64,000 nucleotides of DNA, taken from Nitrospiria bacterium (lineage in GTDB: Bacteria > Nitrospirota > UBA9217). Positions 21,801 through 44,680 of the stretch are shown here, in pieces. The notes under the pieces are model-generated. The model saw nothing but the letters and a program-made list of their open reading frames with translations. It was not told the origin of the DNA and searched no databases. Within the stretch, counting starts at the first letter, position 1, and each line of letters opens with the position of its first letter. The stretch spans positions 10,654-74,653 of the forward strand of contig CAKKPG010000012.1 in NCBI GenBank assembly GCA_919901555.1, written 5' to 3'. The position numbers were made by a program, and so were the translations under genes.

Positions 21801-21935
21801 CTGTTCCACGGACGCTGCTTTCTGTTTCTCTGCGGCAAATGCAGCGGGTATCTGGAATAAAGGGCCAAATGACCATAGAAAACAGGTGAGAACAGTCCAT
21901 ACCGTGACTCGGAAGCTGAAAGAATAGGCGCGCAT
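18813..21935 (-). CDS. Membrane-anchored transglutaminase-like (papain-fold Cys-His-Asp) domain protein, cassette 1
   Basis: 1040 aa. N-terminal signal/anchor, K/E-rich coiled coil, then the core: LRIYEWVRNNIEY...GADQCLQSRICNDTDTASLLIALLRTSGISARYAYG (Cys), HVWVSAFIDY (His) and WIQLDPS (Asp). The C-terminus has several TM helices. GGAGAG SD before the ATG. Confidence 0.8.
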   Translation of the reverse strand: MRAYSFSFRVTVWTVLTCFLWSFGPLFQIPAAFAAEKQKAASVEQAPGKPVSREQKPEEKFEGVLEAIREKVGKASEKNAKGEDASAEIREVGNRKTQLADLNEQLQAEFAATEKKIAGLPREIRDRHTAFVKNYTANYTQLRDELNDIDAARTPAERKAKIEKVRLHLDKTRPKKLVQRLDPENLPFRVRKATKTVAPRLKKEEFERDFRKQKSHSSRNISDSRLMPDLLASKPQSKPVLLAFNEIASDVPLQLPRPLVGEGGGEGAILQVAFADSAPILLAQQTADIPTAADLSETPEVQFTPEIRAKAAELGNSPLRIYEWVRNNIEYAPTYGSIQGADQCLQSRICNDTDTASLLIALLRTSGISARYAYGTVDIPIEKAMNWVGDVTNPMMVGTILATNGVPVTLLKTSGSVYKYVRMEHVWVSAFIDYIPSRGAVHRQPDTWIQLDPSFKQYAYTQGIDIQSAVPFDAQTFANQLQSTSTINETEGYVTNVNSTLIQQTMQDYQTQVQNYIQQNHPNATVGDVVGKKEIIKQEFGILPETLPYKTVQIGSQFAQVPDNLRATISFSIPDSTGAGTGLFYSASLPELAGKKITLSFSPATANDQAVIESFLPQPHPDGTPIQPSELPSSFPAYLINLKSELRIDGQIVATGAPGTMGSAQSFTMSLNEPGIGLSNIDNMIQAGEYYGIGLDTGRVGGDRLNALKAKLETTKEKIVTQTYGGITKDDVVGDLLFMTITTYFNELDLSDEIAAKAQDAIRYRVPSIGLCSTQLAVQAVFGIPTWTGFGGMMMDVDRIMQAVFSKNGNTDNVRKYMLTSGSMSSALEHLIPERMYSTPSDVVQGISAVKALQIASDQGISIYTVNQTNINIILPQLQVSEDVKSVIANAVNAGKEVTVPRTNVSYNDRLLCGYIITDPVTGAGAYMISSGENGALLLIGVGLLLLALSILAGPIAFAILSLLLPIYLAFLNWLMTEASSTAQDCVAAIALNILAAITVRNILIVFITFRPVQILINSIRMYFAGSATQSNCLGNGLAY

Positions 21936-26379: not shown

Positions 26380-29300
26380 TCACTGAACAGGGGGGTCGCA
26401 GTGAGTAGCTAATTCTCTGCATTTTGCGCCCTGATTAACGGCCCATGCCACCATACCTGCGCCAATCAGTATTGCAGCAGCATATCCGAACCACCCTCCA
26501 AAGAATTGCATTACCATCGCTATTCCTAAAAATCCTTTAAACAGTTTCTCCAAGCTGCCACTAACAACGAGACCAACACAACCCCAATATTCACTACTAT
26601 GAAAATATTTTATACAATTGCCACCTGCCTGACTAATATAGGTTTCCTCGAGTTCCGCTGCAGCTGCTTCTGTTACTAAGAAGTGTAACGCGATATTAAC
26701 AAAGGGGGCCAGGAGGAAGCCTCCACTTGTCCCTCCGCTTATCATGTACGCTCCGGCACCCGTATTGGGATCTATAATTATATAGCCACACCCGTCCCAG
26801 CCGTTAATATTTATATTCCTTTTCGGAACCGCAATTATTTTTCCCGCATTCAGAGCATCTTGAATATGTTTTTTGACGTCAGCGGCGACTTGAAGTTGTG
26901 AATTAATTATGCTTGCATTTTCCTGATTAATACTATAAATCGGTATGCCCTGCTCACTTGCTATCTGTAACGCTTTAACCGCTGAAAGCCCCTCAACTGA
27001 ATTGCTTGGTGTAGAAAATATCTGCTCTGGGGTTCTGCTTTCGAAAGCAGAAGACACCCCGCCTGATGCGAGCATGTATTCTCTCAATTTGTTCATATCT
27101 CCGTCTTTGCTAAACACGGCTTGCATAATCCTGTCCACATCCATCATCATACCCTTGGAACTGACGGTTTTTGGTATGCCAAATATTTCCTCGACATTCA
27201 TGTGCAAATAGAACATTCCTACAGATGATGTCCTGTATCGAATCACATTTTTTACCTTAGCTGTAATTTCATCAACGGTATCGAGGTCGGCGAAATAATT
27301 AATAGCTGTAAAATACAGCAAATCACCGACAAGAGCATCTTTCGTAAGAGTGGTATAATCTTTTGTCACTAAAAGATTTTTCGTTTCGGCGAGTTTGTCC
27401 TTTATATTTCTCAAAACCTTCTCAGCAATCTTACCTGTATTTAAACCTATACCAAAATATTCACCAGCTTGAATTATATTATCGATACGGCTCACACCAA
27501 AACCCGGCTCAGTAAGCGACATGGTGAACGATTGTGCGCTTCCCATAGTGACAGAAGAACCAGTTGCCACAACCAGGCCCTCTATGCGGAGTTCTGGCTT
27601 GAGATTGATGAGATACGCTGGCAATGAGCCGGGGGTTGCTTGAAGATATGTTTCTATAATGGTTTTATCGTTGGCTGTAGCCGGTGAGAAGGAGAGCGTG
27701 ATCTTCTTTCCAGCTATCTGAGGCAGGCTGGTGCTATAGGAAAGTCCAGCACTCATGCCAGTGGGGTCGGGAATGCTGAAGCTGATGGTCGCGCGGAGAC
27801 TGTCGGGAATCTGTGCAAACTGCAATCCAACAAGGATGGTCTTATACGGCAGCGTCTCGGGCAGGATTCCGAATTCCTGTTTAATGATCTCCTTCTTCCC
27901 GAGAACATCGCCGACAGTGGCGTTGGGATAGTTTTGGTTGATGTAATTCTGAACCTGTGTTTGATAATCCTGCATGGTCTGCTGGACCAAAGCGGAGTTC
28001 ACATTCGTTACATACCCTTCTGTTTCGTTGATAGTGGCTGTTGCCTTGATCTGGTCTGCCAAAGCTTGGGCATCAAAGGGCACAGCTGTCTTGATATCGA
28101 TTCCCTGGGTGTAAGTGTACTGCTTGTAGCTCGGGTCGAGCGGCACCCAGGTATCGCCCTGTTTGTGGACCGCCCCGCGACTTGGAATATAGTCGATCCA
28201 AGCCCTTACGTAAACATGTTCGAGTTGTACGGCTTTATATGTTCCGCCGCTTGTCTTCATGAGTGTTACTGGTATGCCATTGGTGGCGAGAATCGTTCCA
28301 GCCATCTTTGGGTCAGTCACACCACCGACGAGGTTCATGGCTTTTTCGATGGGAATTTCGATTGTGGAATATTCGTAATGGGAGTATACCCCTGATACTC
28401 TGAGGAGAGCGATGAGCAAACTGGCAGTGTCGGTGTCGTTGCAAATCCTTGACTGAAGGCACTGGTCCGCCCCCTGGATACTGCCATAGGTGGGTGCGTA
28501 TTCGATGTTATTGCGAACCCATTCGTAGATTCTGAGCGGTGAGTAACTGAGTTCCTGGGCCTTGGCCTTGATGTCGTCAGTGAACTGTATTTCGATCCCG
28601 TTTTCGGCGAGGTCTTCGGCTGTCGGCGCGTCGCCCGCTTGCGCAAGGAGGAATGATGATGAATCGGAGAAAGCTAATTGTGATTGCAAGTTGAGGATTT
28701 CAGATTTCGGATTGAGACCACCCCTCACCCCCGCCCTCTCCCCTGATGGGCGAGGAATTTGGAAAGGAACGTCGCTCGCAGTTTCATTGAATGCCAGGAG
28801 AACGGGTTTGTATTGCCGGCGGCTCGACAGAAGATCAGGCATCAACCGGATTTCGGCAACCTTCCGTTTGTTCTGCGTCTTCTGTTGTGGAAAGTCACGC
28901 TCGAAGTCTTCCCGTTTCAAGCGCGGTTCGCGCGTCTTTGTAACCTTTCTGGCTTTAAACGGCAAATTGTTCGGATCAAGTTTTTGATGGCGCGAGGGGC
29001 CTTTGGTCTTTTCGAGAAATACCCTGACCTTCCCGGCTGCAATCCTGGCTTCGTCCCCTGTCTTTGCTTTTTCTACACCGTCCAGGTGGGTCCTGAGAGC
29101 GCTCAGGCCCTCACCGTATCTCTTCACGAACGCCCTCTGCCGCTGTTTAATCACCTCCGGGAGGTTTTTGATCTTGGTTTCGGTTTCCTTGAATTGCCTC
29201 TGTAATTCCGTGTCAAGCGTCTCCAACTCGCTCTTCTCGGCTTTGAGCTTCTCGCGGTCCTCTCCTGCTTCTCCTATCCGGTTGAGGCTCTCCCGGAATT

Positions 29301-29478
29301 TTTCTTCGGTCGATTTTCGTCTTTCCTGTCCGCTGGTCGCCGCCTTTTGCCCTTTCGTCCCCCTGGACCCCGCCGCGGCATAAGAGGCTGGAATTTGGAA
29401 TAAAGGCCCGAAACACCATAAATACAGCATGAGGGTGATACTGGCCGTGATTTTCAAATTCATAGAATAAGTCCGCAT
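26380..29478 (-). CDS. Membrane-anchored transglutaminase-like domain protein, cassette 2
   Basis: 1032 aa, a paralog of 18813..21935 with the same coiled coil, TGase core (ICNDTDTASLLIALLRVSG / HVYVRAWIDY / WVPLDPS) and C-terminal TM region. Confidence 0.8.
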   Translation of the reverse strand: MRTYSMNLKITASITLMLYLWCFGPLFQIPASYAAAGSRGTKGQKAATSGQERRKSTEEKFRESLNRIGEAGEDREKLKAEKSELETLDTELQRQFKETETKIKNLPEVIKQRQRAFVKRYGEGLSALRTHLDGVEKAKTGDEARIAAGKVRVFLEKTKGPSRHQKLDPNNLPFKARKVTKTREPRLKREDFERDFPQQKTQNKRKVAEIRLMPDLLSSRRQYKPVLLAFNETASDVPFQIPRPSGERAGVRGGLNPKSEILNLQSQLAFSDSSSFLLAQAGDAPTAEDLAENGIEIQFTDDIKAKAQELSYSPLRIYEWVRNNIEYAPTYGSIQGADQCLQSRICNDTDTASLLIALLRVSGVYSHYEYSTIEIPIEKAMNLVGGVTDPKMAGTILATNGIPVTLMKTSGGTYKAVQLEHVYVRAWIDYIPSRGAVHKQGDTWVPLDPSYKQYTYTQGIDIKTAVPFDAQALADQIKATATINETEGYVTNVNSALVQQTMQDYQTQVQNYINQNYPNATVGDVLGKKEIIKQEFGILPETLPYKTILVGLQFAQIPDSLRATISFSIPDPTGMSAGLSYSTSLPQIAGKKITLSFSPATANDKTIIETYLQATPGSLPAYLINLKPELRIEGLVVATGSSVTMGSAQSFTMSLTEPGFGVSRIDNIIQAGEYFGIGLNTGKIAEKVLRNIKDKLAETKNLLVTKDYTTLTKDALVGDLLYFTAINYFADLDTVDEITAKVKNVIRYRTSSVGMFYLHMNVEEIFGIPKTVSSKGMMMDVDRIMQAVFSKDGDMNKLREYMLASGGVSSAFESRTPEQIFSTPSNSVEGLSAVKALQIASEQGIPIYSINQENASIINSQLQVAADVKKHIQDALNAGKIIAVPKRNININGWDGCGYIIIDPNTGAGAYMISGGTSGGFLLAPFVNIALHFLVTEAAAAELEETYISQAGGNCIKYFHSSEYWGCVGLVVSGSLEKLFKGFLGIAMVMQFFGGWFGYAAAILIGAGMVAWAVNQGAKCRELATHCDPPVQ

Positions 29479-30212: not shown

Positions 30213-32969
30213 TTACTTCTCCAGCGGCTTCAGATACCCGTCCTTATCAAGTATGATTTCGTTGCTATTGCTCTTGATTTTGATCTCAGTCTGTCCGTCT
30301 CCATCAAAATCCGAGATTACGAGAGCGCTGTCGTATGACGCGAACAGCGCATCGGGCGCAAGATTGTTCAGATACACCGGCCCCCATTTGATTTTGCCGT
30401 CATGCTCGGTCAAATAGACGCTCCCTTCCATATATTGTGCCGGAGAATACACCTGCGTAATGAGCAGAACAATCTCGGGCAAGCGATCGTCATTGAATTT
30501 AGCAATTGTATATGTGCCTGTTCCTAAGAACTTATCCACTCCTGCTGTATATCTGCCGTCGTTGTCTTTGTCTTCGAAAATGAGAATACTGGCGGAATCA
30601 GCAATCTTTGCGTTACCGGTGTTTTCGAATGCTGCTTTCACATGAGGGGACAAGGTTAAGGTCTGGCTGGTGAAGAGCATGCTTGTAAAGTTCGGCGCTG
30701 TTGGTACGTTATCGGGGCCGAGAATTTCGTCCGGCACCTTGATCTTGAGTGAGCGGATGGCCTGGTTGTTGGTCTCGTAGAGTTCGGTGACGACGCTTTC
30801 CGTGTCCGTGATGGCGTAGAACCGGTAGGTCCAGGGGACTGCGGTGAAGGTGTAGGGGAGCGTAGTTGTTCCGTCTCCCTGTATGCTGTCTACTGTATAC
30901 GTCGTTAAAAGCGTCCCTCCTGAAGCGGGGTCTCCGTCATAGAGCGCGAGGTTGAAGGCGCCCGTCTCCCTGATGCCCGCGTTGTGGACCGTGACGGAGA
31001 GGAGAACGGAGTCGCCGGAAACGGGATGGGACGGGGTAAAAGACAGGTCCGTTGCGGAAATGGTGATGTCCACCATATCGGTCATGACCCGGACCGCGGC
31101 GGTGTTGTTGCTTTCATCGGCTTCGGATATCGCGTTCGTTTGGTCAGCGATGACGTAGAGGTCATGAATGCCGGAACTGATCGTCCAGCTTGCGGTCGCC
31201 GTGTATGTCCCGCCTGAAGCGAGGGATGAGACTGTCTCGCTCTTGATGAGCGTGCCGCCGGATTCCGGCGCATTGTCGTAGATGTCCACGGTAAAGGAGC
31301 CTGCGTCCGCGTATCCCTGGTTCCGGATGATCGCGCTGATCTGGACAGTCTGGTTGGCTGTGGGCCGGCTGGGGGTGAGGGTGATTTCGCCGGACGTAAC
31401 CGCAAGGTCAACCTGTCCCTGCAAGCCCCCGACGGTGACCGTGACCGTGCCGGTGTTGTTGGTCTCGGATAATTCAGGGATCAGGGTTCCGGGGTCAGCG
31501 GTCAGGTAAAGCGTATGCGAGCCGTCGCCGGTAAGCGTGACGCCGAAAGAGCCCGTGCGGACCGCTGTGCCCACAAGACCGGAAATATTTCCGGTCTGAA
31601 GGAGCGTCCCGCCAGAGGCGGGGTCCCCATCGTAGAGAGATATGGTAAAAGCCCCTGTCTCGGACTCACCCAGGTTCCTGACCGTGTATTCCAGTGTGAA
31701 CGCAGTTCCGGCACTCGGAACATAGGTCGAAGGTTTCAGGTCTTCGGAGTAAACGGCAATATCCGGCCCCGTCGCGACCCAGATGCGGGCAGAGGATTTG
31801 TTGTCACTCTCTGAGGTTTCGGAGATGGTATTGTCCGGGTCCGCGACCACGAAGATGGTCTTGCCGCCCGTGCCGGTGAAGGATTGTGTGATCGAGACTT
31901 GAGATGATGAATTGACGGATAAAGAAGGAATGATTTGATCAGAACCAATTTGAGTTCCGCCAGCAGAAGGGTCACCGAGATAAAAACGAACGATTATATT
32001 AGAAGCGTTGTCGAATCCCGTGTTCTTTACTGCAGCAGTAATCGTGATGGACTCATTTTCTATCGGCATTGACTTTGAAAGGGAAATATCACTTGATGAA
32101 ATAACAAGATTAGGCCTCGCGCTCGCGAGCGCGCGCAAGGCAAGCGCCGTGGAATAGGGATCGTCATTCCAACTGCCGTCCGATAACTGATTTGTGGTGA
32201 GATAGGCGGCGCCGTTGGATACAACGGTTGTGATATTGGCCGCTCCGCTCGAAATCAATGCGTCGAGCGCTAAACCGGAATCGTAAACCATAGAAGGACT
32301 GGAGCCGAAACCACCGTCCGGATTCTGTTTCGTGAGGAGATACGCAATTGTCCTGTCAATCGAACTTTGAACGTTGAAGGTGACGCTATTATATGAAGAC
32401 AAGGTTTTCAAGACTGCGGCGGTTGCGAAAACATTGCTGTCCTCACCGGCCGCGAAGCCCCAGCCGCCGTCCGAATTTTGATTCGAGGTAATGAAATTTA
32501 CGGCCTGAAAAAGAACAGAATAATCGGAGTAAGCCAGTGCCTGGAGAGCCTGGAGGGCGAGAGCCGTGTCCAGGATATTGTAAAAATATTCCGAATCGCC
32601 TCCCCATGCGCCGTCGGAATTGCGGTAAAGAAGCAACCCCTCTAATTCGCTGGAAGTGTCCTGTCCGGCGCGTTTAAGCGCGATGATCCGTCTCGAGAGA
32701 TAATCCGTCGGCGATACGACTTGGCCGCTCATCCACTGAAAGGCCGTGCTGTATGCAGGGTTTAAGGGATCAAGGGCATAAACAGCATCCAGTGCCGCGG
32801 CCGTGGAGTAATAATCGGTGGTCGTGACCTCCGGCCAATTTCCGGCGGACGTCTGCGAAGAATAAAGCCACGTGAGGCCGGAGGAAATTTGGGGAGATTG
32901 GGCAAAAGCGAAAGAATGTATTGTCGATAATAAGATAAAAGCAGCGATGATTTGGACGCTTTTTCGCAT
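30213..32969 (-). CDS. Internally deleted and C-terminally truncated paralog of the giant protein (cassette 3)
   Basis: Start MRKSVQIIAAFILL at 32969 with a GGAGGAGC SD. Same alpha/alpha-toroid domain and CARDB series. It jumps from ...LGTGTYTIAKFNDDRLPEIV into an FG-GAP segment that lies about 300 aa further on in the giant protein, then terminates. Confidence 0.65.
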   Translation of the reverse strand: MRKSVQIIAAFILLSTIHSFAFAQSPQISSGLTWLYSSQTSAGNWPEVTTTDYYSTAAALDAVYALDPLNPAYSTAFQWMSGQVVSPTDYLSRRIIALKRAGQDTSSELEGLLLYRNSDGAWGGDSEYFYNILDTALALQALQALAYSDYSVLFQAVNFITSNQNSDGGWGFAAGEDSNVFATAAVLKTLSSYNSVTFNVQSSIDRTIAYLLTKQNPDGGFGSSPSMVYDSGLALDALISSGAANITTVVSNGAAYLTTNQLSDGSWNDDPYSTALALRALASARPNLVISSSDISLSKSMPIENESITITAAVKNTGFDNASNIIVRFYLGDPSAGGTQIGSDQIIPSLSVNSSSQVSITQSFTGTGGKTIFVVADPDNTISETSESDNKSSARIWVATGPDIAVYSEDLKPSTYVPSAGTAFTLEYTVRNLGESETGAFTISLYDGDPASGGTLLQTGNISGLVGTAVRTGSFGVTLTGDGSHTLYLTADPGTLIPELSETNNTGTVTVTVGGLQGQVDLAVTSGEITLTPSRPTANQTVQISAIIRNQGYADAGSFTVDIYDNAPESGGTLIKSETVSSLASGGTYTATASWTISSGIHDLYVIADQTNAISEADESNNTAAVRVMTDMVDITISATDLSFTPSHPVSGDSVLLSVTVHNAGIRETGAFNLALYDGDPASGGTLLTTYTVDSIQGDGTTTLPYTFTAVPWTYRFYAITDTESVVTELYETNNQAIRSLKIKVPDEILGPDNVPTAPNFTSMLFTSQTLTLSPHVKAAFENTGNAKIADSASILIFEDKDNDGRYTAGVDKFLGTGTYTIAKFNDDRLPEIVLLITQVYSPAQYMEGSVYLTEHDGKIKWGPVYLNNLAPDALFASYDSALVISDFDGDGQTEIKIKSNSNEIILDKDGYLKPLEK

Positions 32970-33043
32970 AGCTCCTCCGGATATCTCAATGAATATCTTC
33001 AATGCAGAGAGACAAAACATACTACCTCAAACGTCACTCGATT

Positions 33044-33561: not shown

Positions 33562-36500
33562 TCAATAACAAGGATTATTATAATTAATATCGCCAAACCA
33601 AAATTGGTAAGCGTCTATTATAACGGGAGCACAAGGAAGCGCACACCACCACGCCCTGCCTCTCGCAGATGTTTGTACTAATTTTACAAAAAACTGAAAA
33701 AGGATACTCGCAGCGAAAATGATCACTGGAAACCAAACTGCAAGTACTACAAGGAAGAAGGCCAGCATAAGAGATATCACTGTCATAATTGCTATAAACC
33801 AAATGTCAGCACTTGTCATGGACGACCAATTTAAAGCATTTCCTGATTCTAGGTAAGAATCAATCCAGCTTAAAGCTTCAACACTAAATGCATATCCAGC
33901 ACTTGGCGCGCCTATGTTGCAAAACATGAGGAGGATATCTTTTAAACAATCAGTCAACGCTTGCCAACCACCATTTGAACCTCCGCTGATTTTATATGCT
34001 CCAGCACCAGTAAATGGATCCTGAATTATATATCCTACACCAACCGACCCATAGTAGGATGCTGCCCTTGCGGGTACCGTTACAATCTTGCCAGCTCCGA
34101 TGGCATTATTAATGTCAGCTATAACATCAGATGACACCTGGAGTTTTGGAAGAATTGTTGCTATATTATTTGATGTGATAGTGTAAATGGGTATTCCAGC
34201 CTTATTTGCCGCATTAAGCAGGCTTATCGTCGAAATGGCAGGTATCTTTGAAAGTGTTTCTGCATGATTATGTTCTAAGCCTGATGATATATAGCCTGCC
34301 GTCTCCATGAATTGTTTTGTCTTTTCTTGGTCACCTGTTTTTGAAAACACAGTGAAAATATTTCTGTCGACATCGATTCCATAACCTTCGAGATCAAAGT
34401 TCTTAGGAATAGAAAAAAGATAAGTAACCGAAGGCACTGCAGATGTGATGGCCGCTGAGATGCCCTTTGCAGCGGTTACACCATTAAGCCATTCCGCTAT
34501 CCCAAGCATCTTGCCTTGTGCATAAAAATAATAGAGCCCTTGCAGCCATAACCAATCTCCTATCAATTTATCTCGTTCTACAACTGGCTGTTCTCCATTA
34601 TTCAATTGAGCCTTCATTGCTTCAAGAGTACTTTTAAATTTAAGTGCATTAGTCTCCAAAATACTATACAAAAACCGTTGTGGTTCCACGACGATTGCAG
34701 AATATCCACCGGCATCAAAAACATTTTGAACTCGATCAGTACCTATTCCTGGATCATAAAATGCCATGATGAAGTCATGTGAAACGCCTAATTGCATTTG
34801 TGGACCAGACGCTACCGTCGCACCGTCGATCTTTATCACGGGACGTAGGGTTAGGAGATAGGGCGGAACTTTCGTCACATCTCCCCCGTAACGATTCAGC
34901 AAATCAGAATCAGCCTGCGTAGCGGGATCATATGACAACGTGATCTTTTTCCCCGCAATCGATGGGAGCTGTGATGTATATGAGAACCCGCTATTTGAGC
35001 CGGACATATCAGAAATTTCAAATGTTAATGTCGCTCTGTACTTTGCTGGTACATCAGCGAATTCCGAGCCAATTTGAATAGTCTTGTACGGCAGGGTGCC
35101 CATGAGGTAAGGAAATTCCTGTTTGACGATCTCTTTTTTACCGATGACGTCTCCTACCGTAGCGTTCGGATGGTTCTGGGTGATGTAATCCTGGACCTGG
35201 GTCTGGTAGTCCTGCATGGCTTGCTGGATATACGCTGAATCGACGTTCGTTACATATCCTTCCGTTTCGTTGATCGTCGCCGTGGATTGGAGCTGGCTTA
35301 CGAATGTTTGAGCATCAAAAGGCACGGCAGAACTGATGTCGATACCCTGGGTGTAGGTGTATTGCTTGTAACTGGGGTCGAGCGGTATCCAGGTATCGCC
35401 CTGCTTGTGGACCGCGCCGCGTGAAGGGATATAGTCAATAAAAGCTTTTACGTAAACATGCTCCATCTGAACATTTTTGTAAACGCCGCCGCTCGTTTTC
35501 ATGAGGGTGACCGGTATGCCGTTCGTGGCCAGTATCGTTCCTGCCATCTTGTAATCGGTCACGCCCCCCACCCAGTTCATGACTTTATCAATCGGTATTT
35601 CGACGGTGCCGTACACGTACCGGGCGGAAATACCGGACGTGCGAAGCAAAGCGATTAGCAAGCTGGCAGTGTCGAAATCGTTGCAAATCTTCGTCTGGAG
35701 ACACATGTCGGCGCCCTGGATGGAGCCATAGGTAGGGACGAATTCGATGTTGTTCCTGACCCACTCGTAGATTTTGACCGGGCTGTATCCGAGTTCCGCT
35801 GCCTTGGCCTTGATATCGTCAGTAAATTGAATTTCGATCCCATTTTCGGCGAGATCGTCAGCAGTAGGCGCGTCTGCCGCCTGCGCAAGAAGGATCGGTG
35901 TTGAATCGCTGAGGGCTAATTGGGGAATGAAATCATTTATAGATGTCGATGAGGATGCTGAGAGTCGGTCTGATCGAAATGAAACCGGCTGATCACTAAA
36001 CGTCCCACTATCATTGAATGCCAACTGAATGGGCTTATGCTTGATGCGTGTTAATAAGCCTGTCCCCGAATAGTTTAATCGGGGATGATCATTCGCGGCA
36101 ATAGTATTTTCAACGCTTGCGAGCTTCTTAGCTTTTTTGTGTGACGGAAAATCTTTTTCAAACTCCTCTTTTTTTAACCTCGGCGCTCTTTCCTTGGCCT
36201 TGACGGTCCTGAACGGCAGCTTGTTCGGGTCGAGCGGAACGTGCTTCGTTGGAGGCTTGGTTTTATCGAGATGGGCCTTGGCTTTTTTCAGCGCCTCTCT
36301 TCCCTGTTTACTGCCTACTGCATACTTCCCTACTTCTTCCAGGTTGGCCCTTAACTCTGCAAGGTTGTCTTCGTAGTGCTTTACGAATTTATAATGCCGG
36401 TCGAGGATTTCCTTCGGCAGCTTCGCGTCTTTGAGCTTCTTCTCAGTTGCGGCGAATTCCGCTTTTAGCTCAATATCTATTTTCTCAATCTCTGTTCTCT

Positions 36501-36813
36501 TTGCCTTTACCTCCGCGACCTCAGCGGTGATGTCTGCCGTCCCTTCGACTTTGCTCAGGGCAAGCTTCTCCTGCGCTTTGTGGATCTTCTCGCGGACCGC
36601 CTCCAGCGCCTTCTCGAACTTTTCTTCCGGCCTCTGGACCAAGGCAACCGTGTTGCCGTCCTTTACGCCGACGCGGTCGGCTCGCTCCATATTCCGCACT
36701 CGCGGCGGCTCCGCCGCCCATACCACGGCCGCATACAGCGGCATGTACGTCCAGCAGAAGAAAAACAACGTAAGTGCAGAAACCATCTTCAAAATCCGAG
36801 AAAAAGTCCGCAT
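33562..36813 (-). CDS. Membrane-anchored transglutaminase-like domain protein, cassette 3
   Basis: 1083 aa, a paralog. Core IYEWVRNNIEFVPTYGSIQGADMCLQTKICNDFDTASLLIALLRTSG (Cys), HVYVKAFIDY (His), WIPLDPS (Asp). Confidence 0.8.
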   Translation of the reverse strand: MRTFSRILKMVSALTLFFFCWTYMPLYAAVVWAAEPPRVRNMERADRVGVKDGNTVALVQRPEEKFEKALEAVREKIHKAQEKLALSKVEGTADITAEVAEVKAKRTEIEKIDIELKAEFAATEKKLKDAKLPKEILDRHYKFVKHYEDNLAELRANLEEVGKYAVGSKQGREALKKAKAHLDKTKPPTKHVPLDPNKLPFRTVKAKERAPRLKKEEFEKDFPSHKKAKKLASVENTIAANDHPRLNYSGTGLLTRIKHKPIQLAFNDSGTFSDQPVSFRSDRLSASSSTSINDFIPQLALSDSTPILLAQAADAPTADDLAENGIEIQFTDDIKAKAAELGYSPVKIYEWVRNNIEFVPTYGSIQGADMCLQTKICNDFDTASLLIALLRTSGISARYVYGTVEIPIDKVMNWVGGVTDYKMAGTILATNGIPVTLMKTSGGVYKNVQMEHVYVKAFIDYIPSRGAVHKQGDTWIPLDPSYKQYTYTQGIDISSAVPFDAQTFVSQLQSTATINETEGYVTNVDSAYIQQAMQDYQTQVQDYITQNHPNATVGDVIGKKEIVKQEFPYLMGTLPYKTIQIGSEFADVPAKYRATLTFEISDMSGSNSGFSYTSQLPSIAGKKITLSYDPATQADSDLLNRYGGDVTKVPPYLLTLRPVIKIDGATVASGPQMQLGVSHDFIMAFYDPGIGTDRVQNVFDAGGYSAIVVEPQRFLYSILETNALKFKSTLEAMKAQLNNGEQPVVERDKLIGDWLWLQGLYYFYAQGKMLGIAEWLNGVTAAKGISAAITSAVPSVTYLFSIPKNFDLEGYGIDVDRNIFTVFSKTGDQEKTKQFMETAGYISSGLEHNHAETLSKIPAISTISLLNAANKAGIPIYTITSNNIATILPKLQVSSDVIADINNAIGAGKIVTVPARAASYYGSVGVGYIIQDPFTGAGAYKISGGSNGGWQALTDCLKDILLMFCNIGAPSAGYAFSVEALSWIDSYLESGNALNWSSMTSADIWFIAIMTVISLMLAFFLVVLAVWFPVIIFAASILFQFFVKLVQTSARGRAWWCALPCAPVIIDAYQFWFGDINYNNPCY

Positions 36814-37627: not shown

Positions 37628-38050
37628 TCATTTTATCTGATTGCGGTTGGCCAAGTCCACCTTTATCTTTGAGTGCTCGATGGATAGGTCTATCCACTTT
37701 TCGGCCAGTTTTTTAAACTTCTTATAGGTCTTGATCTGCTCTCTCAGTTCAGCGACATGGTGCGTCCTGACATAGTTGGTCTTGCTTTTCATCTTATGCG
37801 TGTAGCTGAGTTGGTAGAACTCCCATTTTTTGTCCTTAACATTCCGGTACAGCTTGGTTAGTGAGCCTGGACGCATTTCGTCGATTCCCATCAGCTCCCG
37901 TTTGATCTCTTCTATCTGCTGTTTAATCCGCGCAAGCCTTTTGTCCGCCATAACCGCTCCTCTCTGTCTAGGTGAAGGGCATGGGGACAAAGGGCATGGG
38001 GACAGGTCTTGAAATATAAGAAACTGCCTTTTCAACGGGCTGTTGCCCAA
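37628..38050 (-). CDS. Small hypothetical protein (DUF6788-like), paralogous to the ORF at 44649..44993
   Basis: Similar to 44649..44993 in ...GSLTKLYRNVKDKKWEFYQLSYTHKMKSKTNYV..ELREQIKTYKKFKKLAEKW. Start uncertain (MADKRLARIK at 37951 plausible). Confidence 0.4.
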   Translation of the reverse strand: MGNSPLKRQFLIFQDLSPCPLSPCPSPRQRGAVMADKRLARIKQQIEEIKRELMGIDEMRPGSLTKLYRNVKDKKWEFYQLSYTHKMKSKTNYVRTHHVAELREQIKTYKKFKKLAEKWIDLSIEHSKIKVDLANRNQIK

Positions 38051-38159: not shown

Positions 38160-38280
38160 AGGCCGTCAAGACTTGACCCCAAATGCCAAAAATGCCAAAA
38201 TGCCAAATGCTTTGACCCCAAATGCTTTGACCCCAAATGCTTAAATGCTTACATGACCCCAAATGCTTATTCTGCCTCTT
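38160..38280. repeat. Tandem simple repeats: ccaaaa(a)tg three times, then ccccaaatgctttga three times
   Basis: caaaaatgccaaaaatgccaaaatgccaaatgctttgaccccaaatgctttgaccccaaatgctt..., non-coding. Confidence 0.7.
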
Positions 38281-38485: not shown

Positions 38486-39301
38486 ATGGTCTTGCAAAAA
38501 ATCAAATTCGACGTAGAGATCGGGGATGATACTGTCGGCAAAGGTTCAGTTATCATTATTGCCGAAATGGAAAGCCACGTGCTCTATAACGCCATCCGCC
38601 TCGAAGGAGAGCAGACGAAGATAGTCTGCCGGAAGGATGCTCTGGAGGCGATTCAAAATTCATCTCCTGATGTTATACTCCTCGACTGCGGCTCTGACAC
38701 CATCTGCGGCCTCGAACTTCTCAGAAAGATCAAGACGTTGAGAGTGGATACCCCGGTCATCTTCATCGCCGGGGAAAGCTCGATGGATGTAGTAGCAAAT
38801 ACTCTGCGAACGGGCGCAAGGGAGATCTTCGTAAAGCCTGTGGATATATTCGAGCTTAAAAGAGTTATCAGGAGGTTCCTCGATATCAAGAGAGCATCGA
38901 GGGAGAAGAGAATTCCCTTCATGACGAGCATCACGGCCGGCAACGATCTCTGCGCTACGTCCGATAAACCGCCCAATCTGCTGCGCGCCGCAAGCTATAT
39001 CGGAGACAATCTTTCCGAAAAAATAACCACCGAAGGCCTCTCACGTATGGCTAACCTGAGCAAGTACTATTTCTGCAGGAACTTCAAAAAACACTTTGGC
39101 ACGTCGCCCATGAAGTTCGTAACCCTCGTGAAAATAAACAAGGCAAAGGAACTCCTGAAGAGAGAAGACCTCAGGGTCAAGGAAGTGGCCTCCCATGCAG
39201 GATTTAATAACCTCGGGACATTCATAAGACAGTTTAAAAAGGCCGAGGGTCTCACCCCTACCTCCTACAAGGAACTGCGCAAAAAATCCTCTCTAAAATA
39301 A
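38486..39301 (+). CDS. Receiver-like domain / AraC-family HTH transcriptional regulator
   Basis: 271 aa. N-terminal receiver-like fold with an atypical acidic pocket (IIIAEME in place of the usual DD, DVILLD retained). C-terminal AraC-type HTH (YYFCRNFKKHFGTSPMKF...GFNNLGTFIRQFKKAEGLTP). Confidence 0.7.
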   Translation: MVLQKIKFDVEIGDDTVGKGSVIIIAEMESHVLYNAIRLEGEQTKIVCRKDALEAIQNSSPDVILLDCGSDTICGLELLRKIKTLRVDTPVIFIAGESSMDVVANTLRTGAREIFVKPVDIFELKRVIRRFLDIKRASREKRIPFMTSITAGNDLCATSDKPPNLLRAASYIGDNLSEKITTEGLSRMANLSKYYFCRNFKKHFGTSPMKFVTLVKINKAKELLKREDLRVKEVASHAGFNNLGTFIRQFKKAEGLTPTSYKELRKKSSLK

Positions 39302-39504
39302 TCTTTCCAAAATTTCATTTTTTACTCCTTAAGTCTGCGACAATTTCTGAATAAAGAAGAGCAAGAATGATAATTGACGAAGGGGCATCATCTGGTAGAG
39401 TTAATCAAGCAGCCGGTTCTAAATTGTAAAGGTATTCCCCGATCCGCATCACAAGAAGAGGCAGAAGACTTACGTTGTCCGAGAAAGAAAGGAGGTGACA
39501 GACC

Positions 39505-39651
39505 ATGTTCACGCTCAAGATCGAGGAATTAGAAGAGCGGATCGCGCCGGATTTTATCGGCAATCCGGGCAACAACAACCCGCCTCTCAACAACACGAAC
39601 AATCCGGGGAACGAAGGCGCCGGCGGCCAGGTGTCGACCGGCGGTGTGTGA
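39505..39651 (+). CDS. Small N/G/P-rich peptide (48 aa), a candidate precursor-like peptide
   Basis: ATG 7 nt after AAAGGAGGTGA. MFTLKIEELEERIAPDFIGNPGNNNPPLNNTNNPGNEGAGGQVSTGGV. Not in the ORF track (under 60 aa). Followed by a perfect 22-nt palindrome. Confidence 0.5.
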   Translation: MFTLKIEELEERIAPDFIGNPGNNNPPLNNTNNPGNEGAGGQVSTGGV

Positions 39652-39676
39652 GTTGTTAATGTGAACCTTGAGCAGA

Positions 39677-39698
39677 CTTGAAGCTGATCAGCTTCAAG
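39677..39698 (+). other. Perfect 22-nt palindrome cttgaagctgatcagcttcaag between the peptide gene and the NHL gene
   Basis: Could form a 9-bp stem with a 4-nt loop hairpin. No U-tract follows, so it may be an attenuator or processing site rather than an intrinsic terminator. Confidence 0.4.
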
Positions 39699-39738
39699 TT
39701 CAAGTCTGCAAGGTCAGGTCAGAAAAGGAGGCACGAAC

Positions 39739-40845
39739 ATGTTAAAGCTAAAATACGTGTATGCCGCCGCGATCCTCGCGGCGCTTGTCTTCGCACTTGG
39801 AATCTGGAATCCCTTCCCGGCGAAAGCAGACCGCGGTGTCTCGCTTGTCCCACCGAAGTTTAAGGTGGATCCGTTCTGGCCGAAGCCGCTGCCCGCTCCC
39901 GGCGGCCATCAGTGGGTGACGGGGGAGCCGGGTGGGAGCTGCGTCGACTCGCGGGATCACATCTTCACGGTCAACCGCGGGAACCTCACGGCGAATGACG
40001 GCACCACGTCGGTCGCCTCGCCCCCGGTGCTCGAGTACGATCCCGAGGGCAACCTGGTGAACTCCTGGGGGGACCGCACCATCCTGCCGGACGGCCTGCA
40101 CGGCTGCTTCTTCGATCAGCAGGATAACATCTATATCGCCGGCAACGCAGATGCCATCGTGCAGAAGTATACGCACGACGGCACCCTGCTGCTGCAGATC
40201 GGCACCAAGGGGCTGTTCGACACATCCGACGGGACTGCTACAGGCACGCCGTTGAACTCGAGTCACACGCTGCTCCACCGGCCGGCGGACATCGCGGTCG
40301 ATCCGGAGAACGGCGATATCTACATCGCGGACGGCTACGGCAACTTCCGCGTGGTGGTCTTCGACAAGAACGGCAACTTCCTCCGCCAGTGGGGCTCTGG
40401 CCCAGGCACCGACCCAGGGCAGTTCGGCACCAGCGGCCATCCGCACTGCGTTGTACTCGGCAAGGAGGGGCTCGTCTACACGTGCGACCGGGCCAACCAT
40501 CGGATCGAGGTCTTCGACAAGCAAGGCACCTGGCTGCGGGACATCCGCGTGGATCCCCCGAGCCCCCTCGATCAGTCAACCCTGCGGGCGTGTGACATCG
40601 ACTTCTCGATCGACAAGAACCAGACCTGGATATACGACACGGACCTCGGCAGCGACAAGGTCTGGATCATGAACCGCTCCCTCGGCACGATCGTCGGCAG
40701 CTTGGGCCGGGCCGGGCAGATGGCCGGCGAGTTCATCTTCCCGCACACGGCGACGGTCGACTCCAAGGGCAACCTCTACGTGGCGGAGACCGTCAACGGC
40801 CGCCGCATCCAGAAGTTTGTGAATCTAGGTCACTCACCGGAGTAG
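39739..40845 (+). CDS. Secreted NHL-repeat beta-propeller protein (peptidyl-hydroxyglycine amidating lyase-like fold)
   Basis: 368 aa with a signal peptide. Repeats GDIYIADGYGNFRVVVFDKNG / GQFGTSGHPHCVVLGKEGLVYTCDRANHRIEVFDKQG / GEFIFPHTATVDSKGNLYVAETVNGRRIQKF. Confidence 0.75.
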   Translation: MLKLKYVYAAAILAALVFALGIWNPFPAKADRGVSLVPPKFKVDPFWPKPLPAPGGHQWVTGEPGGSCVDSRDHIFTVNRGNLTANDGTTSVASPPVLEYDPEGNLVNSWGDRTILPDGLHGCFFDQQDNIYIAGNADAIVQKYTHDGTLLLQIGTKGLFDTSDGTATGTPLNSSHTLLHRPADIAVDPENGDIYIADGYGNFRVVVFDKNGNFLRQWGSGPGTDPGQFGTSGHPHCVVLGKEGLVYTCDRANHRIEVFDKQGTWLRDIRVDPPSPLDQSTLRACDIDFSIDKNQTWIYDTDLGSDKVWIMNRSLGTIVGSLGRAGQMAGEFIFPHTATVDSKGNLYVAETVNGRRIQKFVNLGHSPE

Positions 40846-40917
40846 GGCAACACATAGGTCCGCAATCGGCCGGCCGGGGGCCCGGGCGCTCCCGGCCGGC
40901 GCCACTCGCCACAGGAG

Positions 40918-42357
40918 GTGTTAGCCATGTCCAGCCGTTGGCTCAGACTTGCGGGCGCCGGTCTCGTCACCTTTCTGGCGCTCGGCTCCCTTCCAGCGAC
41001 TGCCCATCAGTTTCCGCTCAGCACGGTGATGAACGCCCTCGTCAAGATCGAGCCGACGCAGGCGCACCTCGTCCTCCGCGTGCCCCTGTCGGTGCTCGCG
41101 TCGGACATGAGCAGAGTCACCGTGGCCTTCCCGGTCATCGGGCCTGAGATTGATCTGGCAGCGGCCGGGCCCGCGATTCAGGAAGCCCTGGGAGGACTTG
41201 GCCAGGAAATCGCGCTCTGGGAGGACGGGGTCCGGCTGGTCCCGTCGCACGCGCGAGGCCGCTTGTCCTTACCCTCGGACCGCTCCTTTGAGCAATATGA
41301 TCAGGCTGCTGCGCACGTGGCCCAGCCAATGGCTCCCGGGGAGAGGATCTACCAGAACCAGGGCTTCTTCGACGCCCAGTTCACCTATCCCATCGGCTCG
41401 CCGACGTCCCGGTTCGCGATCCAGATGACGGTGGCGCCCGGGCTCCCGGAGGAATATCTGAAGCTCGTGGTTCGGTATCTGCCGCTCGACGAAGGGAGCC
41501 GGGCGTTCGTGATTTCGAATCGGTCGGGGCGCGTGAACCTCAACCCCGCGTGGTACCAAGCCGCTAGAGGGTTCGTCGCGCTCGGTATCGGGCATATCCT
41601 GAGCGGCGTGGATCACCTCCTGTTTCTCCTCTGCCTCATCATCCCCTTCCGGCGGCTCCGCGGCCTCATCCCGGTGGTCACGGCATTCACGGTCGCCCAT
41701 TCCATCACGCTCATCGCCTCGGCCTACGACCTCGTGCCGGTCGGCGCGTGGTTCCCCCCGCTGGTCGAGACCCTCATCGCGGCGTCCATCGTCTACATGG
41801 CGCTCGAAAACATTGTCGTGACGGACCTCCGGTATCGCTGGCTCATCACGGGCCTGTTCGGGCTGATGCACGGCTTCGGCTTCTCGTATGGCCTGGCCCA
41901 GAATCTCCAGTTCGCCGGCTCGCACCTCCTCGTATCGCTTCTGTCGTTCAACATCGGGATCGAGATCGGCCAGATCCTCATGCTGCTCGTCGCACTTCCG
42001 GCCCTGGCCCTGCTGTTCCGGTACGCGCTCACCGGGCGCGCCGTCGTGGTGATCCTGTCCGCGGTGGCCGCCCACACTGGCTGGCACTGGATGACGGAGC
42101 GGGCCGACGTGCTCTGGAAGGTCCAGTGGCCTGCTTTGGACGCCGCCGGTCTCACGGTGCTCGCCCGCTGGGCGCTGGTGGTGCTGCTTGCCGGCGGGGG
42201 CGCGTGGCTCCTCGCGGGACGGCTTGTGCGTCACCCCGACCTACAAAAGCCCAGAACCCAAGTTGAAGAGTTGGAAGAGCGGATCGTCCCGAGCGTGACC
42301 GGGACCGGTGGGTACGACGGTCAGCCAGGAAACCAGATGCAGGACAGAGGGGTCTAA
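40918..42357 (+). CDS. Membrane protein with a periplasmic N-terminal domain and a HupE/UreJ-like multi-TM domain
   Basis: 479 aa with a signal peptide. GIGHILSGVDHLLFLLCL and HSITLIASAY resemble the HupE/UreJ motif G.lHP..G.DHllaMlavG. The C-terminal tail TQVEELEERIVPSVTGTGGYDGQPGNQ...GV repeats the motif of the small peptide. Confidence 0.6.
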   Translation: MLAMSSRWLRLAGAGLVTFLALGSLPATAHQFPLSTVMNALVKIEPTQAHLVLRVPLSVLASDMSRVTVAFPVIGPEIDLAAAGPAIQEALGGLGQEIALWEDGVRLVPSHARGRLSLPSDRSFEQYDQAAAHVAQPMAPGERIYQNQGFFDAQFTYPIGSPTSRFAIQMTVAPGLPEEYLKLVVRYLPLDEGSRAFVISNRSGRVNLNPAWYQAARGFVALGIGHILSGVDHLLFLLCLIIPFRRLRGLIPVVTAFTVAHSITLIASAYDLVPVGAWFPPLVETLIAASIVYMALENIVVTDLRYRWLITGLFGLMHGFGFSYGLAQNLQFAGSHLLVSLLSFNIGIEIGQILMLLVALPALALLFRYALTGRAVVVILSAVAAHTGWHWMTERADVLWKVQWPALDAAGLTVLARWALVVLLAGGGAWLLAGRLVRHPDLQKPRTQVEELEERIVPSVTGTGGYDGQPGNQMQDRGV

Positions 42358-43105: not shown

Positions 43106-44680
43106 TCAACTCGAATTATTATACAGTGCGGCCTGGGCTGTTGCGGTATCGGCCGTATGGAGGGTCTGCAGAAACTCCCTTGGATGGACATTCTGCCTTC
43201 TGGCGGTCTGGATGAGCGTGGGGATGATACTGTGGGTCTTTATTCCGCTGTTCGATCTCGTCCCGAAGCACACCTTGCGGAAGATCACCATGTGCCGAAG
43301 CGACTGTTCGGCATGATTGTTCGTCGGCGGCACGCCGGGGATGCGCAGGAAGGTGAAGAGGCGCTTCTGCTCAGGGCCGATGAGGTACGACCGCAGAGTC
43401 TCGGCGGGTTTGAACCGGAGCGGCCGCTTGCAGATTTCATTGAGTTCAGCAACAAAGCGTTTTTCGATATCGGCCGCCTTCTTCCAGGGGAGGCCGCCGG
43501 ATTCTAGTTTCCGTCCCGCATCGCAGGCTTGTTTGCCGAGGTCTGCGACATTGCTCACGAGGGATTCCACGCAGCGGTCCTTTTCCGGCTGCGGCAAAAG
43601 CGCGTGCTCCCGGCCGAGGTCCTTGGCGTTGGTGATGATATGCGCCAGACACGCCTGCCAGTCGAGACCAATGCCGTTATATGCGGCATAGCGGTCGCGC
43701 ATCAGCGTACCGTCAAAATTATTTCCAAAGACAGTTTTCGCCGCATCCGCAGATCGGCGCCGGTCTATGTGGAAGAAGGCCAGATCGTCATTTCCCGCGA
43801 ACCATACAAAATACCCCTTGCCGTCATTTCTCCAGGAGGTTTCATCAGCATGGACTACAGGGGAAACCCGTATTTTCTCCCGCACATCCTCATAGATTGG
43901 TTCTCCCTTTTTTGCCGTCTTCCGGTCAAACCCCACGAGCGAGGCCGGAGCGCAGAAGAGCCCGAACAGGTCTTCAAGTATCAGCTGCGTCTTCCGGTAG
44001 GAGATGCCGACCCTATAGCGAAGATACCCGGCAGTGGATTTTGCAGCCGGCCCGATCGGGGCGTTCGGGATCTCGTCCGGCCCCGCTTGCACAACGGACC
44101 GGTTGCAGCGAGGGCAGAACGCCTCCGCATGCACATACTTCGTGACCATGGTCTTGGGCTTGACGACAATATCCTCCTGGATGTGCTCGTGGAACGTGTT
44201 CTCGGGCGTCAAATCATTTGACCCGCAGTGGGGACAGACGGTCGGAACGGGAACTGGGATAATCCGGTCAATCCGCGTCGGGATGGGCCTCGTCCATGCC
44301 GGATGCCCCTTCGGCGCCCCGCGCTTCTTTGGTTTCGCGTTGATAGATGATGAACCGTGCCTGCTGTCCGTCTCAGCCTGTTTTCGGTTCGGCTTGAACT
44401 GCTTTCTATGCAATGCCTGATACTTGGCCCGAAGCTCCGCATTCTCCCGTTCCAGGACCCGTATCCGCCCATCCCGCTCCTGTACCGCTTCCCGAAAATT
44501 ATCGATGATCCGCAGATGCCCATGATATACATCATCGGCCCGACGGTACTCGCTCAGGACCCACGACGTGGACAGACCGTCCAGATAAGGGCAGGTGTGC
44601 TCATAGAGACAGACAAAATCATGGGCGGCCAGGGATGCCGGGACATTCCTATTTGCTCTCCAAATTGAGCAGCTCCCAAT
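43106..44680 (-). CDS. IS66-family transposase (TnpC-like); the canonical start codon is missing or displaced
   Basis: The ORF track calls 43106..44413 from a TTG. The frame stays open to 44680 and encodes a leucine-zipper-like N-terminus (REAVQERDGRIRVLERENAELRAKYQALHRKQ) with no ATG/GTG/TTG, suggesting a frameshift from the upstream ORF or decay. Confidence 0.7.
   Translation of the reverse strand: MGSCSIWRANRNVPASLAAHDFVCLYEHTCPYLDGLSTSWVLSEYRRADDVYHGHLRIIDNFREAVQERDGRIRVLERENAELRAKYQALHRKQFKPNRKQAETDSRHGSSSINAKPKKRGAPKGHPAWTRPIPTRIDRIIPVPVPTVCPHCGSNDLTPENTFHEHIQEDIVVKPKTMVTKYVHAEAFCPRCNRSVVQAGPDEIPNAPIGPAAKSTAGYLRYRVGISYRKTQLILEDLFGLFCAPASLVGFDRKTAKKGEPIYEDVREKIRVSPVVHADETSWRNDGKGYFVWFAGNDDLAFFHIDRRRSADAAKTVFGNNFDGTLMRDRYAAYNGIGLDWQACLAHIITNAKDLGREHALLPQPEKDRCVESLVSNVADLGKQACDAGRKLESGGLPWKKAADIEKRFVAELNEICKRPLRFKPAETLRSYLIGPEQKRLFTFLRIPGVPPTNNHAEQSLRHMVIFRKVCFGTRSNSGIKTHSIIPTLIQTARRQNVHPREFLQTLHTADTATAQAALYNNSS

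Follow-up and report, generated by a model that had tools for sequence, protein, structure and literature searches.

A daptide-like precursor gene and an in-frame fragment of a second one flank an NHL–HupE gene pair in a Nitrospirota genome: a probable remnant of a peptide processing and export module

A small gene with a strong ribosome-binding site, a hairpin behind it and two larger genes downstream on the same strand raise the question of whether such a group forms a self-contained operon, in which a precursor peptide is matured by its neighbors, or has come together in some other way. The locus that poses this question lies in a 64,000-nucleotide stretch of DNA from a Nitrospiria bacterium (assembly GCA_919901555.1, contig CAKKPG010000012.1), which was analyzed as a whole and which we refer to as the window. 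It comprises three plus-strand genes, a 48-residue open reading frame (ORF), an NHL-repeat gene and a HupE_UreJ_2 gene. A preliminary description had read these as a precursor peptide, a modifying enzyme and a membrane protein that shares the recognition motif of the peptide, and all the elements that it listed are present where it placed them. Comparison with other genomes points to another assignment of roles, in which the locus is probably what recombination has left, as a remnant or orphan, of a daptide-like module for peptide processing and export, and the NHL and HupE genes are bystanders.

The 48-residue peptide matched 361 protein clusters in a search of 5.8 billion proteins. The top 120 clusters (E ≤ 5e-14) are 48 to 84 residues long and contain no Pfam domain, and the peptides matched no Pfam model and no NCBIfam model, the latter scanned at E ≤ 0.1. 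LEPR-XLL and other curated leader or sorting domains were considered and rejected, as neither the window peptide nor its LEPRIAP-containing relatives gave an NCBIfam match. The family follows the consensus x(5-20)-(V/I/L)EELE(E/Q)RIAP-x(3-5)-GNPGNNNPPxNNTNNPGNEGTGGxVSTG-x(0-3). When 22 homologs were aligned, 28 positions were invariant and the window peptide keeps every one of them, the leader being invariant at E7, L9, E10, R12, A14 and P15. At the C-terminus, family members end in ...STG followed by 0 to 3 variable residues, and the window peptide ends in ...STGGV. Cleavage of the precursor is predicted to occur after the Pro that closes the leader.

The 27-codon cores of 35 type-A genes (the type to which the window peptide belongs), drawn from about ten phyla, show mean pairwise differences of 0.046, 0.038 and 0.457 at codon positions 1, 2 and 3, respectively, with a mean amino-acid difference of 6.5% (∼94% identity) and third positions near saturation. 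Because the first two positions are conserved while the third is nearly saturated, the gene is, by its codon pattern, translated and its core under very strong purifying selection, stronger than that on the leader. The earlier proposal that this small ORF, with its strong Shine-Dalgarno sequence, encodes a precursor-type peptide with an N-terminal recognition leader is therefore borne out by conservation in hundreds of relatives. On these alignments, the gene is a genuine type-A member of a large, apparently undescribed leader-peptide family for which neither Pfam nor NCBIfam offers a model. In P0001, a variant 98% identical to the window peptide and found on a 1026-bp ENA contig, Asp replaces a Gly that is otherwise invariant (GNPDNNN), which may be a sign of relaxed constraint in the window lineage.

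The type-A peptide was used to gather a comparison set of 39 loci, made up of three long metagenome contigs and 36 loci from a scan of species-representative genomes. These 36 loci are all in metagenome-assembled genomes (MAGs), assigned to Gemmatimonadota, Verrucomicrobiota, Planctomycetota, Acidobacteriota, Nitrospirae, Methylomirabilota, Rokubacteria, Eisenbacteria, Cyclobacteriaceae, Haliangiales and Burkholderiales; one (L018) is a Nitrospirae MAG other than that of the window. The 39 loci contain 138 leader peptides, encoded as tandem arrays with a median of 3 per locus (range 1 to 9). Array peptides have a short variable N-terminus, a common leader, (V/I/L)E-x-LE(E/Q/P/A)RIAP, and a hydrophilic core in which Gly, Asn, Pro and Ser abound. 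The cores fall into about ten recurring types, which we labeled A to K; type B, for example, reads SVTGTGGYDGQPGNQxxxxxNPSGSANPEGSANPEG and type C reads DSVNGVPGESNGNPGNEVSNGxKPQPGNNTADSHGN. Many arrays, among them six loci (L014, L015, L025, L031, L036 and L048), have the order A-(C/D/E/F)-[fusion gene]-B, the fusion gene being the one described below. More generally, the B gene lies downstream of the fusion gene and the A, C, D, E or F genes upstream of it in many arrays (those six and L027). In a Burkholderiales MAG (L046) the block of peptide genes is duplicated, giving nine genes in all. Outside the window, six further proteins (P0289, P0291, P0298, P0301, P0302 and P0285) are polyproteins of three to seven tandem units, each unit consisting of a …(V/I)(K/E)LEERIAP leader and a short core ending in NHNE(T/S)(L/M)(V/L). 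By their repeats, these look like multi-core precursors with the same leader motif and would represent another peptide family that relies on a recognition element of this kind.

Clustering of all neighboring ORFs revealed a single conserved neighbor of the arrays, a fusion protein present in 31 of the 39 loci; the loci that lack its gene are mostly on contigs that end close to the array. No other gene cluster is common to more than four loci, save antisense ORFs that overlap the fusion gene. The protein, 740 to 870 residues long, combines an N-terminal PqqD-type recognition element (RRE) of peptides that are ribosomally synthesized and modified post-translationally (RiPPs), a site-2-type intramembrane metalloprotease and a C-terminal periplasmic HlyD/RND-adaptor domain. 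Pfam identified PqqD (PF05402, 5.4e-07), HlyD_3 and HlyD_D23, and the NCBIfam model daptide_HExxH (NF041824) matched with an E-value of 1.7e-65, at 212 to 222 bits against a cutoff of 300. Of 29 fusion proteins, 28 have an intact HExxH motif and 28 an intact NxxPxxxxDG motif, and most end in …EFWSWW. No such gene was found in the 64-kb window: neither an HE[FLIVM][AGS]H[GA] nor an FWSWW motif occurs in any frame, and phmmer with the fusion protein of one of the array loci (L001) gave no match to the window ORFs. A double-glycine leader bacteriocin with export by a peptidase-containing ABC transporter was rejected as an assignment for the peptides, since the leader has no GG/GA motif and no ABC transporter is conserved in the loci.

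A second trace of the arrays lies at the other end of the locus. The membrane protein ends in …PRTQVEELEERIVPSVTGTGGYDGQPGNQMQDRGV, which repeats the EELEERIAP of the small ORF as EELEERIVP, and the leader-coding stretches at 39523-39549 and 42265-42291 form a 27-nucleotide direct repeat with 81% identity, within which lies the shared 13-mer gaagagcggatcg, in agreement with the repeat and the shared DNA reported previously. In a six-frame translation of the window, LE.R[IV].P with a G-rich stretch occurs at these two places only, plus one unrelated match. The tail consists of a leader, VEELEERIVP (42262-42291), and the first 15 residues of a core, SVTGTGGYDGQPGNQ. Over VEELEERI(A/V)PSVTGTGGYDGQPGNQ it is nearly identical to free-standing type-B peptides of 51 to 71 residues, with E-values of 5e-8 to 8e-6 in the search of 5.8 billion proteins and local phmmer E-values reaching 4e-11; counted by hand from the alignment, DNA identity to the type-B gene of one array (L004) is ∼88% over 42260-42336. 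The similarity stops after ..AACCAG at 42336, and a continuation of the type-B gene in another frame beyond this point was rejected for want of convincing similarity. None of the 119 closest HupE homologs (60 to 84% identity) has a leader-type tail; they end approximately where the tail starts (..RPRTEEEPA, compared with ..KPRTQVEELEERIVP). Because the tail is nearly identical to free-standing type-B peptides and is missing from all 119 homologs, it is, by homology, the first 25 residues of a type-B precursor that has lost its own start, been fused in frame and been truncated at its 3′ end. Thus, of two earlier suggestions, that of a fused second peptide copy stands, whereas that of HupE as a partner sharing the recognition motif does not. 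The coordinates of these and neighboring features are collected in Table 1.

Table 1. Features of the peptide locus and its flanks, in window coordinates
Feature	Coordinates	Strand	Basis or remarks
AraC-type response regulator gene	38486-39301		Left of the high-G+C block
Candidate sigma-70-like promoter, TTGACG-16-TAGAGT with TG	39374..39401	+	Consensus scan; ∼100 nucleotides upstream of the peptide gene
Shine-Dalgarno sequence AAGGAGGTGA	39489-39498	+	6 nucleotides before the ATG; read from the sequence
Small ORF, 48 residues, MFTLKIEELEERIAPDFIGNPGNNNPPLNNTNNPGNEGAGGQVSTGGV	39505-39651	+	Read from the sequence
Type-A leader MFTLKIEELEERIAP	39505..39549	+	Motif conserved in aligned homologs
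Type-A core DFIGNPGNNNPPLNNTNNPGNEGAGGQVSTGGV and stop codon	39550..39651	+	Homolog search and codon-position differences
Stem-loop	39672..39709	+	Imperfect stem, 39672-39687 pairing with 39694-39709; directly 3′ of the precursor gene
Secreted NHL-repeat beta-propeller	39739..40845	+	Pfam NHL 6.9e-22
HupE_UreJ_2 membrane protein proper	40927..42238	+	PF13795 1.3e-41
5′ part of a type-B gene, in-frame C-terminal tail of HupE	42260..42336	+	Similarity to type-B genes
Six unrelated codons (MQDRGV) and stop	42337..42357	+	Breakpoint; type-B gene truncated and ∼64% G+C block ends
IS66-family transposase gene	43106-44413	-	NF033517 2.2e-63; 750 nucleotides downstream of the high-G+C block

The hairpin contains a perfect palindrome (halves ACTTGAAGCTGA and TCAGCTTCAAGT, 39676-39699) within the longer imperfect stem; its presence was recorded correctly before, with a size of 22 nucleotides that is in fact 24. 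Among 100 shuffles no match with ≤3 mismatches was obtained, and the energy computed for the 101-nucleotide fold is −31.9 kcal/mol (z = −2.4). Because no T-run follows, the hairpin is not a canonical intrinsic terminator. Strong hairpins (z < −2) lie directly 3′ of 44% of the 137 leader-peptide genes in other loci, so the hairpin behind the precursor gene, noted before as part of an operon-like layout, is typical of the arrays. Since strong stem-loops are common behind peptide genes elsewhere, the hairpin of the window belongs with its peptide gene. The possibility that the palindrome is a repeated element was rejected, as it is unique to the locus of the window organism.

In the window, the NHL and HupE genes occupy the position that the fusion gene holds in many arrays, flanked on one side by an A gene that is intact and keeps its hairpin and on the other by a B gene that has lost its start and is truncated, and the 2.85-kb piece now sits in lower-G+C DNA beside an IS66 transposase gene. 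This arrangement is most simply read as a recombination that swapped the center of an A…B module, including the processing and export gene, for an NHL–HupE cassette; microhomology for it could have come from the EELEE leader and the Glu-rich end of HupE. In a complete module, the RRE, acting in the cytoplasm, would bind the leader, the membrane protease would cut after ...RIAP much as the daptide protease MpaP cuts after ELExMEAP, and the HlyD domain would help to pass the core outward. The window peptide would in this way yield DFIGNPGNNNPPLNNTNNPGNEGAGGQVSTGGV. We infer these leader-binding, cleavage and export steps from the domain content of the fusion protein and from analogy with daptides; by the same analogy, maturation of the A peptide would require a cognate fusion protein encoded at another site in the genome. 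That the locus is a remnant, which we consider probable, is favored by three signs of decay, namely the Asp of P0001 at an invariant Gly, the truncated B gene and the lack of a fusion gene within the 64 kb.

Several points weigh against a remnant. The A core retains every invariant residue and the gene has an excellent ribosome-binding site, as would suit a gene still in use, and the arrangement is unchanged across at least six metagenome assemblies, though these possibly sample one population. The term orphan holds for the 64-kb window. The 39 loci were collected via the type-A peptide and the HupE contexts that were read directly number two, so rare links between NHL or HupE genes and the peptides are possible. 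The order of events, whether the cassette entered an array or pieces of an array were captured around the cassette, is deduced, and cleavage, export and activity are likewise read from domain content and the daptide analogy.

A gene still in use is the starting point of the alternative that fares best, a functional rearrangement. Here, an RRE–site-2 protease–HlyD protein encoded elsewhere in the genome would process the A peptide in trans and would also recognize the leader in the tail of HupE, predicted to lie in the cytoplasm, and clip it, thereby releasing a short B-derived peptide or regulating HupE. The complete set of invariant residues in the A core and the strong ribosome-binding site fit such a role, as do the stable layout over six assemblies, the occurrence of an array in another Nitrospirae MAG (L018) and the leader motif of the tail, which is complete save for the change of A to V. 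Moreover, the last hydrophobic segment and a basic run, RLVRHPDLQKPR, precede the tail, and the positive-inside rule suggests that the tail is in the cytoplasm, where an RRE would act. Yet the window contains no fusion gene, the fused tail occurs in just one of 120 HupE sequences, the B core is cut to 15 of ∼40 residues and given an unrelated end, and the Asp of P0001 hints at relaxed constraint. We consider this rearrangement unlikely.

The self-contained operon fares considerably worse. Under this hypothesis, the NHL protein, as a relative of peptidyl-hydroxyglycine amidating lyase (PAL), would tailor the peptide, for example by amidating its Gly-rich C-terminus, HupE would provide export or immunity and EELEERI[AV]P would serve as a recognition tag. 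In its favor, the genes are near neighbors on one strand, all have a strong ribosome-binding site and a hairpin lies behind the precursor gene; the PDB matches of the NHL protein include PAL (E = 1.6e-13); and the family C-terminus is ...STG with 0 to 3 variable residues. The NHL protein has an N-terminus that reads as a signal peptide, ending in AKA before D. Its best matches are generic NHL domains, Thin (3.9e-30) and TRIM71, and its score against ScyF is 99 bits, with a cutoff of 350. The PAL match (PDB 3FVZ/3FW0) reflects a shared NHL-type six-bladed propeller; it covers 92 residues only, at the level of the repeats, and ranks below the nonenzymatic NHL domains of Thin and TRIM71, so that assignment as a PAL-type amidating lyase appears improbable. 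Neither a copper monooxygenase partner (PHM) nor any other monooxygenase gene was seen among the neighboring genes. In addition, the leader is of a class bound by cytoplasmic RRE domains, yet the NHL protein is exported.

The membrane protein is composed of a signal peptide, a periplasmic domain of ∼190 residues and a HupE-type transmembrane bundle, with the PF13795 match spanning residues 219-367 (142.3 bits, cutoff 24.5). Its likely start is the ATG at 40927, which is preceded by GGAGG and used by public gene calls, rather than the GTG at 40918; this gives 476 residues to the stop at 42357, and an exact look-up of the 479-residue product of the GTG start found no record, the recorded product beginning at the ATG. 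Signal-peptide cleavage is predicted between …PATA and HQFP (window 40927-41010), and the mature protein would then begin with His; judged from this sequence, an N-terminal His of a mature HupE-type protein would suit a metal ligand in the large periplasmic domain. Within the HupE/UreJ nickel/cobalt permease superfamily, to which PF13795 relates it, the protein stands apart by its long N-terminal periplasmic domain, its constant pairing with NHL and a peptide-derived tail unique to the window lineage. Homologs number at least 8000, with sizes of 430 to 480 residues; a plasmid collection yielded distant HupE genes only. Pairs of NHL and HupE_UreJ_2 genes are very common and apparently uncharacterized.

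Co-occurrence data bear directly on the operon. NHL genes and true HupE genes are absent from all 39 peptide loci, where the sole "HupE" matches are type-B peptides that match the tail. Of two points proposed earlier as a check, conservation of the small ORF in relatives and its co-location with NHL or HupE genes, the first is seen and the second is not. Conversely, NHL–HupE pairs exist without peptides. In the two nearest pairs (L011 and L012), homologous NHL genes lie directly upstream of HupE and no leader-motif ORF is found nearby. DNA homology to these pairs is confined to 39754-42238, with 87% identity to L011 over 40861-42172 and an end at 42238 for L012. Because none of the peptide loci has the two genes and the closest pairs lack a leader peptide, NHL and HupE do not appear to be partners of the peptide. 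Most likely, on these comparisons, they are an independent two-gene cassette, bystanders to the peptide and not its maturation enzymes, and they probably constitute a periplasmic and membrane metal-handling pair. The earlier view of the NHL protein as a tailoring enzyme fails on the same count, it being the fusion protein that accompanies the peptides. Together with the tail that all 119 close HupE homologs lack, these data largely refute the operon, which we regard as very improbable.

In base composition, the locus forms a block of ∼64% G+C (39.5 to 42.36 kb) between flanks of 42 to 49%, in a window of 54% overall. Although these sharp steps at both ends of the 2.85-kb block (0.64 to 0.42-0.49) might suggest a chimeric assembly of high-G+C DNA with a lower-G+C genome, such an artefact, like a chance ORF or a tail created by a frameshift, has a negligible probability, given a peptide with hundreds of homologs under purifying selection, a tail that shows its similarity in frame and at a level significant in the search of 5.8 billion proteins, and identical gene order and proteins, including the same 476-residue HupE, in at least six independently assembled metagenome contigs from several samples. 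Because the same layout and identical proteins recur in this way, the arrangement is real, neither an assembly artefact nor the product of a frameshift, and the reading frame at the 3′ end of the HupE gene, which had been singled out for verification, is genuine. The NCBI record of the HupE product (P0121) gives a Nitrospirota MAG as its source, and this bacterium is represented in the Hainich groundwater assemblies ERZ1292620 and ERZ2470813.

Around the block, the candidate promoter is weak evidence, with 1 site found and 0.8 expected. Calls for the IS66 gene vary among assemblies (368 or 435 residues). Just upstream of the regulator gene lie a toxin-antitoxin-like DUF433/DUF5615 gene pair (∼36.9 to 37.5 kb; 7118-7722 in L005), a minus-strand gene for a DUF6788 protein (37628-38050) and, in a low-G+C stretch (37975-38004, 38181-38242), short perfect tandem repeats with units of 15 nucleotides (2.0 copies, AAGGGCATGGGGACA), 15 nucleotides (2.7 copies, CCAAATGCTTTGACC) and 8 to 9 nucleotides (3 copies). 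Further to the left is a run of very large minus-strand genes encoding 935 to 2972 residues (9358-18276, 18813-21935, 26380-29478, 30213-33020 and 33562-36813), over which G+C swings between 0.37 and 0.57. Their equivalents in three related contigs (L005-L007) have transglutaminase-core, FG-GAP, CARDB and prenyltransferase/TED-like domains; lengths vary with the assembly (1078 against 1250 residues).

The remaining question is how the peptide family and its fusion protein relate to known systems. The sole relevant literature match for the leader and core motifs was the daptide motif; no description of the leader, the core motifs or the fusion architecture was found in a search that was incomplete, so that "undescribed" is provisional. 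Daptide clusters contain several precursor genes, their leaders carry ELExMEAP at positions -8 to -1 (PMC10036551), and the leader is removed by MpaP, an RRE-fused intramembrane site-2 protease (PMC10036551; Ren et al. 2023, Nat Commun 14:1624). The loci described here likewise have multiple short precursor genes, the ELEERIAP of the window is spaced like the daptide motif and agrees with it at E(-8), L(-7), E(-6), A(-2) and P(-1), with R and I in place of M and E at -4 and -3, and the fusion protein of related loci shares with MpaP a PqqD-type RRE and a site-2-protease membrane domain. In contrast to daptides, the cores are hydrophilic and rich in Gly, Asn and Pro rather than aliphatic helices, and the invariant C-terminal Thr at which daptides acquire their amine modification is absent, the window peptide ending as noted above. 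Furthermore, the protease carries an additional C-terminal HlyD adaptor and scores below the NF041824 cutoff, the hosts belong for the most part to Gram-negative phyla for which MAGs are the only source, and none of the machinery is inside the window. No MpaB-, MpaC-, MpaD- or MpaM-type genes, which in daptides encode an oxidative decarboxylase pair, an aminotransferase and a methyltransferase, and no ABC transporter are conserved, as judged from the clustering of the 39 loci and a Pfam scan of the window, no dedicated hidden Markov model search having been made. Because the C-terminal Thr and the tailoring genes are missing, the cores are hydrophilic, the adaptor is fused and the score is below the cutoff, the family is, by these features, not a daptide family.

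Other RRE-dependent RiPPs, such as pyrroloquinoline quinone and lasso peptides, resemble the family in the N-terminal PqqD domain of the partner, which gave weak matches to lasso PqqD, and in the short leader that precedes the core. The family differs from them in having no conserved modifying enzyme beside the arrays and in a leader that varies more than the core, whereas in most RiPP families it is the core that varies more. A likeness to bacteriocin/NHLP export (TIGR03794, TIGR01000) is seen in the small leader-peptide arrays beside an HlyD-family adaptor and in weak NHLM_micro_HlyD matches (9.4e-09 and 4.2e-11). Unlike those systems, the modules have no double-glycine leader, C39 peptidase or ABC ATPase, and the adaptor is fused to a metalloprotease.

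For annotation, the consequence is that the NHL and HupE genes of this locus should not be described as peptide maturation genes and that the HupE tail should be seen as a gene-fusion scar. As a remnant, the locus itself is of modest interest. The family is a notable, apparently undescribed variant of RRE-dependent daptide-like systems, which joins a daptide-like leader and protease to a different output and has its adaptor fused to the protease. We tentatively propose, with more doubt than confidence, that the arrays and their single RRE–site-2 protease–HlyD partner constitute an undescribed two-part system for leader-based peptide processing and export that is found widely, in about ten phyla of uncultured bacteria from soil and groundwater. 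It would release a fixed set of some ten disordered, strongly conserved Gly/Asn/Pro-rich peptides that act together on a conserved target or as extracellular material, would do so without tailoring enzymes or an ATPase of its own in the module, and would be represented in the window by a broken copy; the polyproteins with LEERIAP…NHNETL repeats would be a sister family following the same leader logic. Cores that remain ∼94% identical across phyla at near-saturated synonymous sites are unusual for secreted peptides, which argues for a conserved function.

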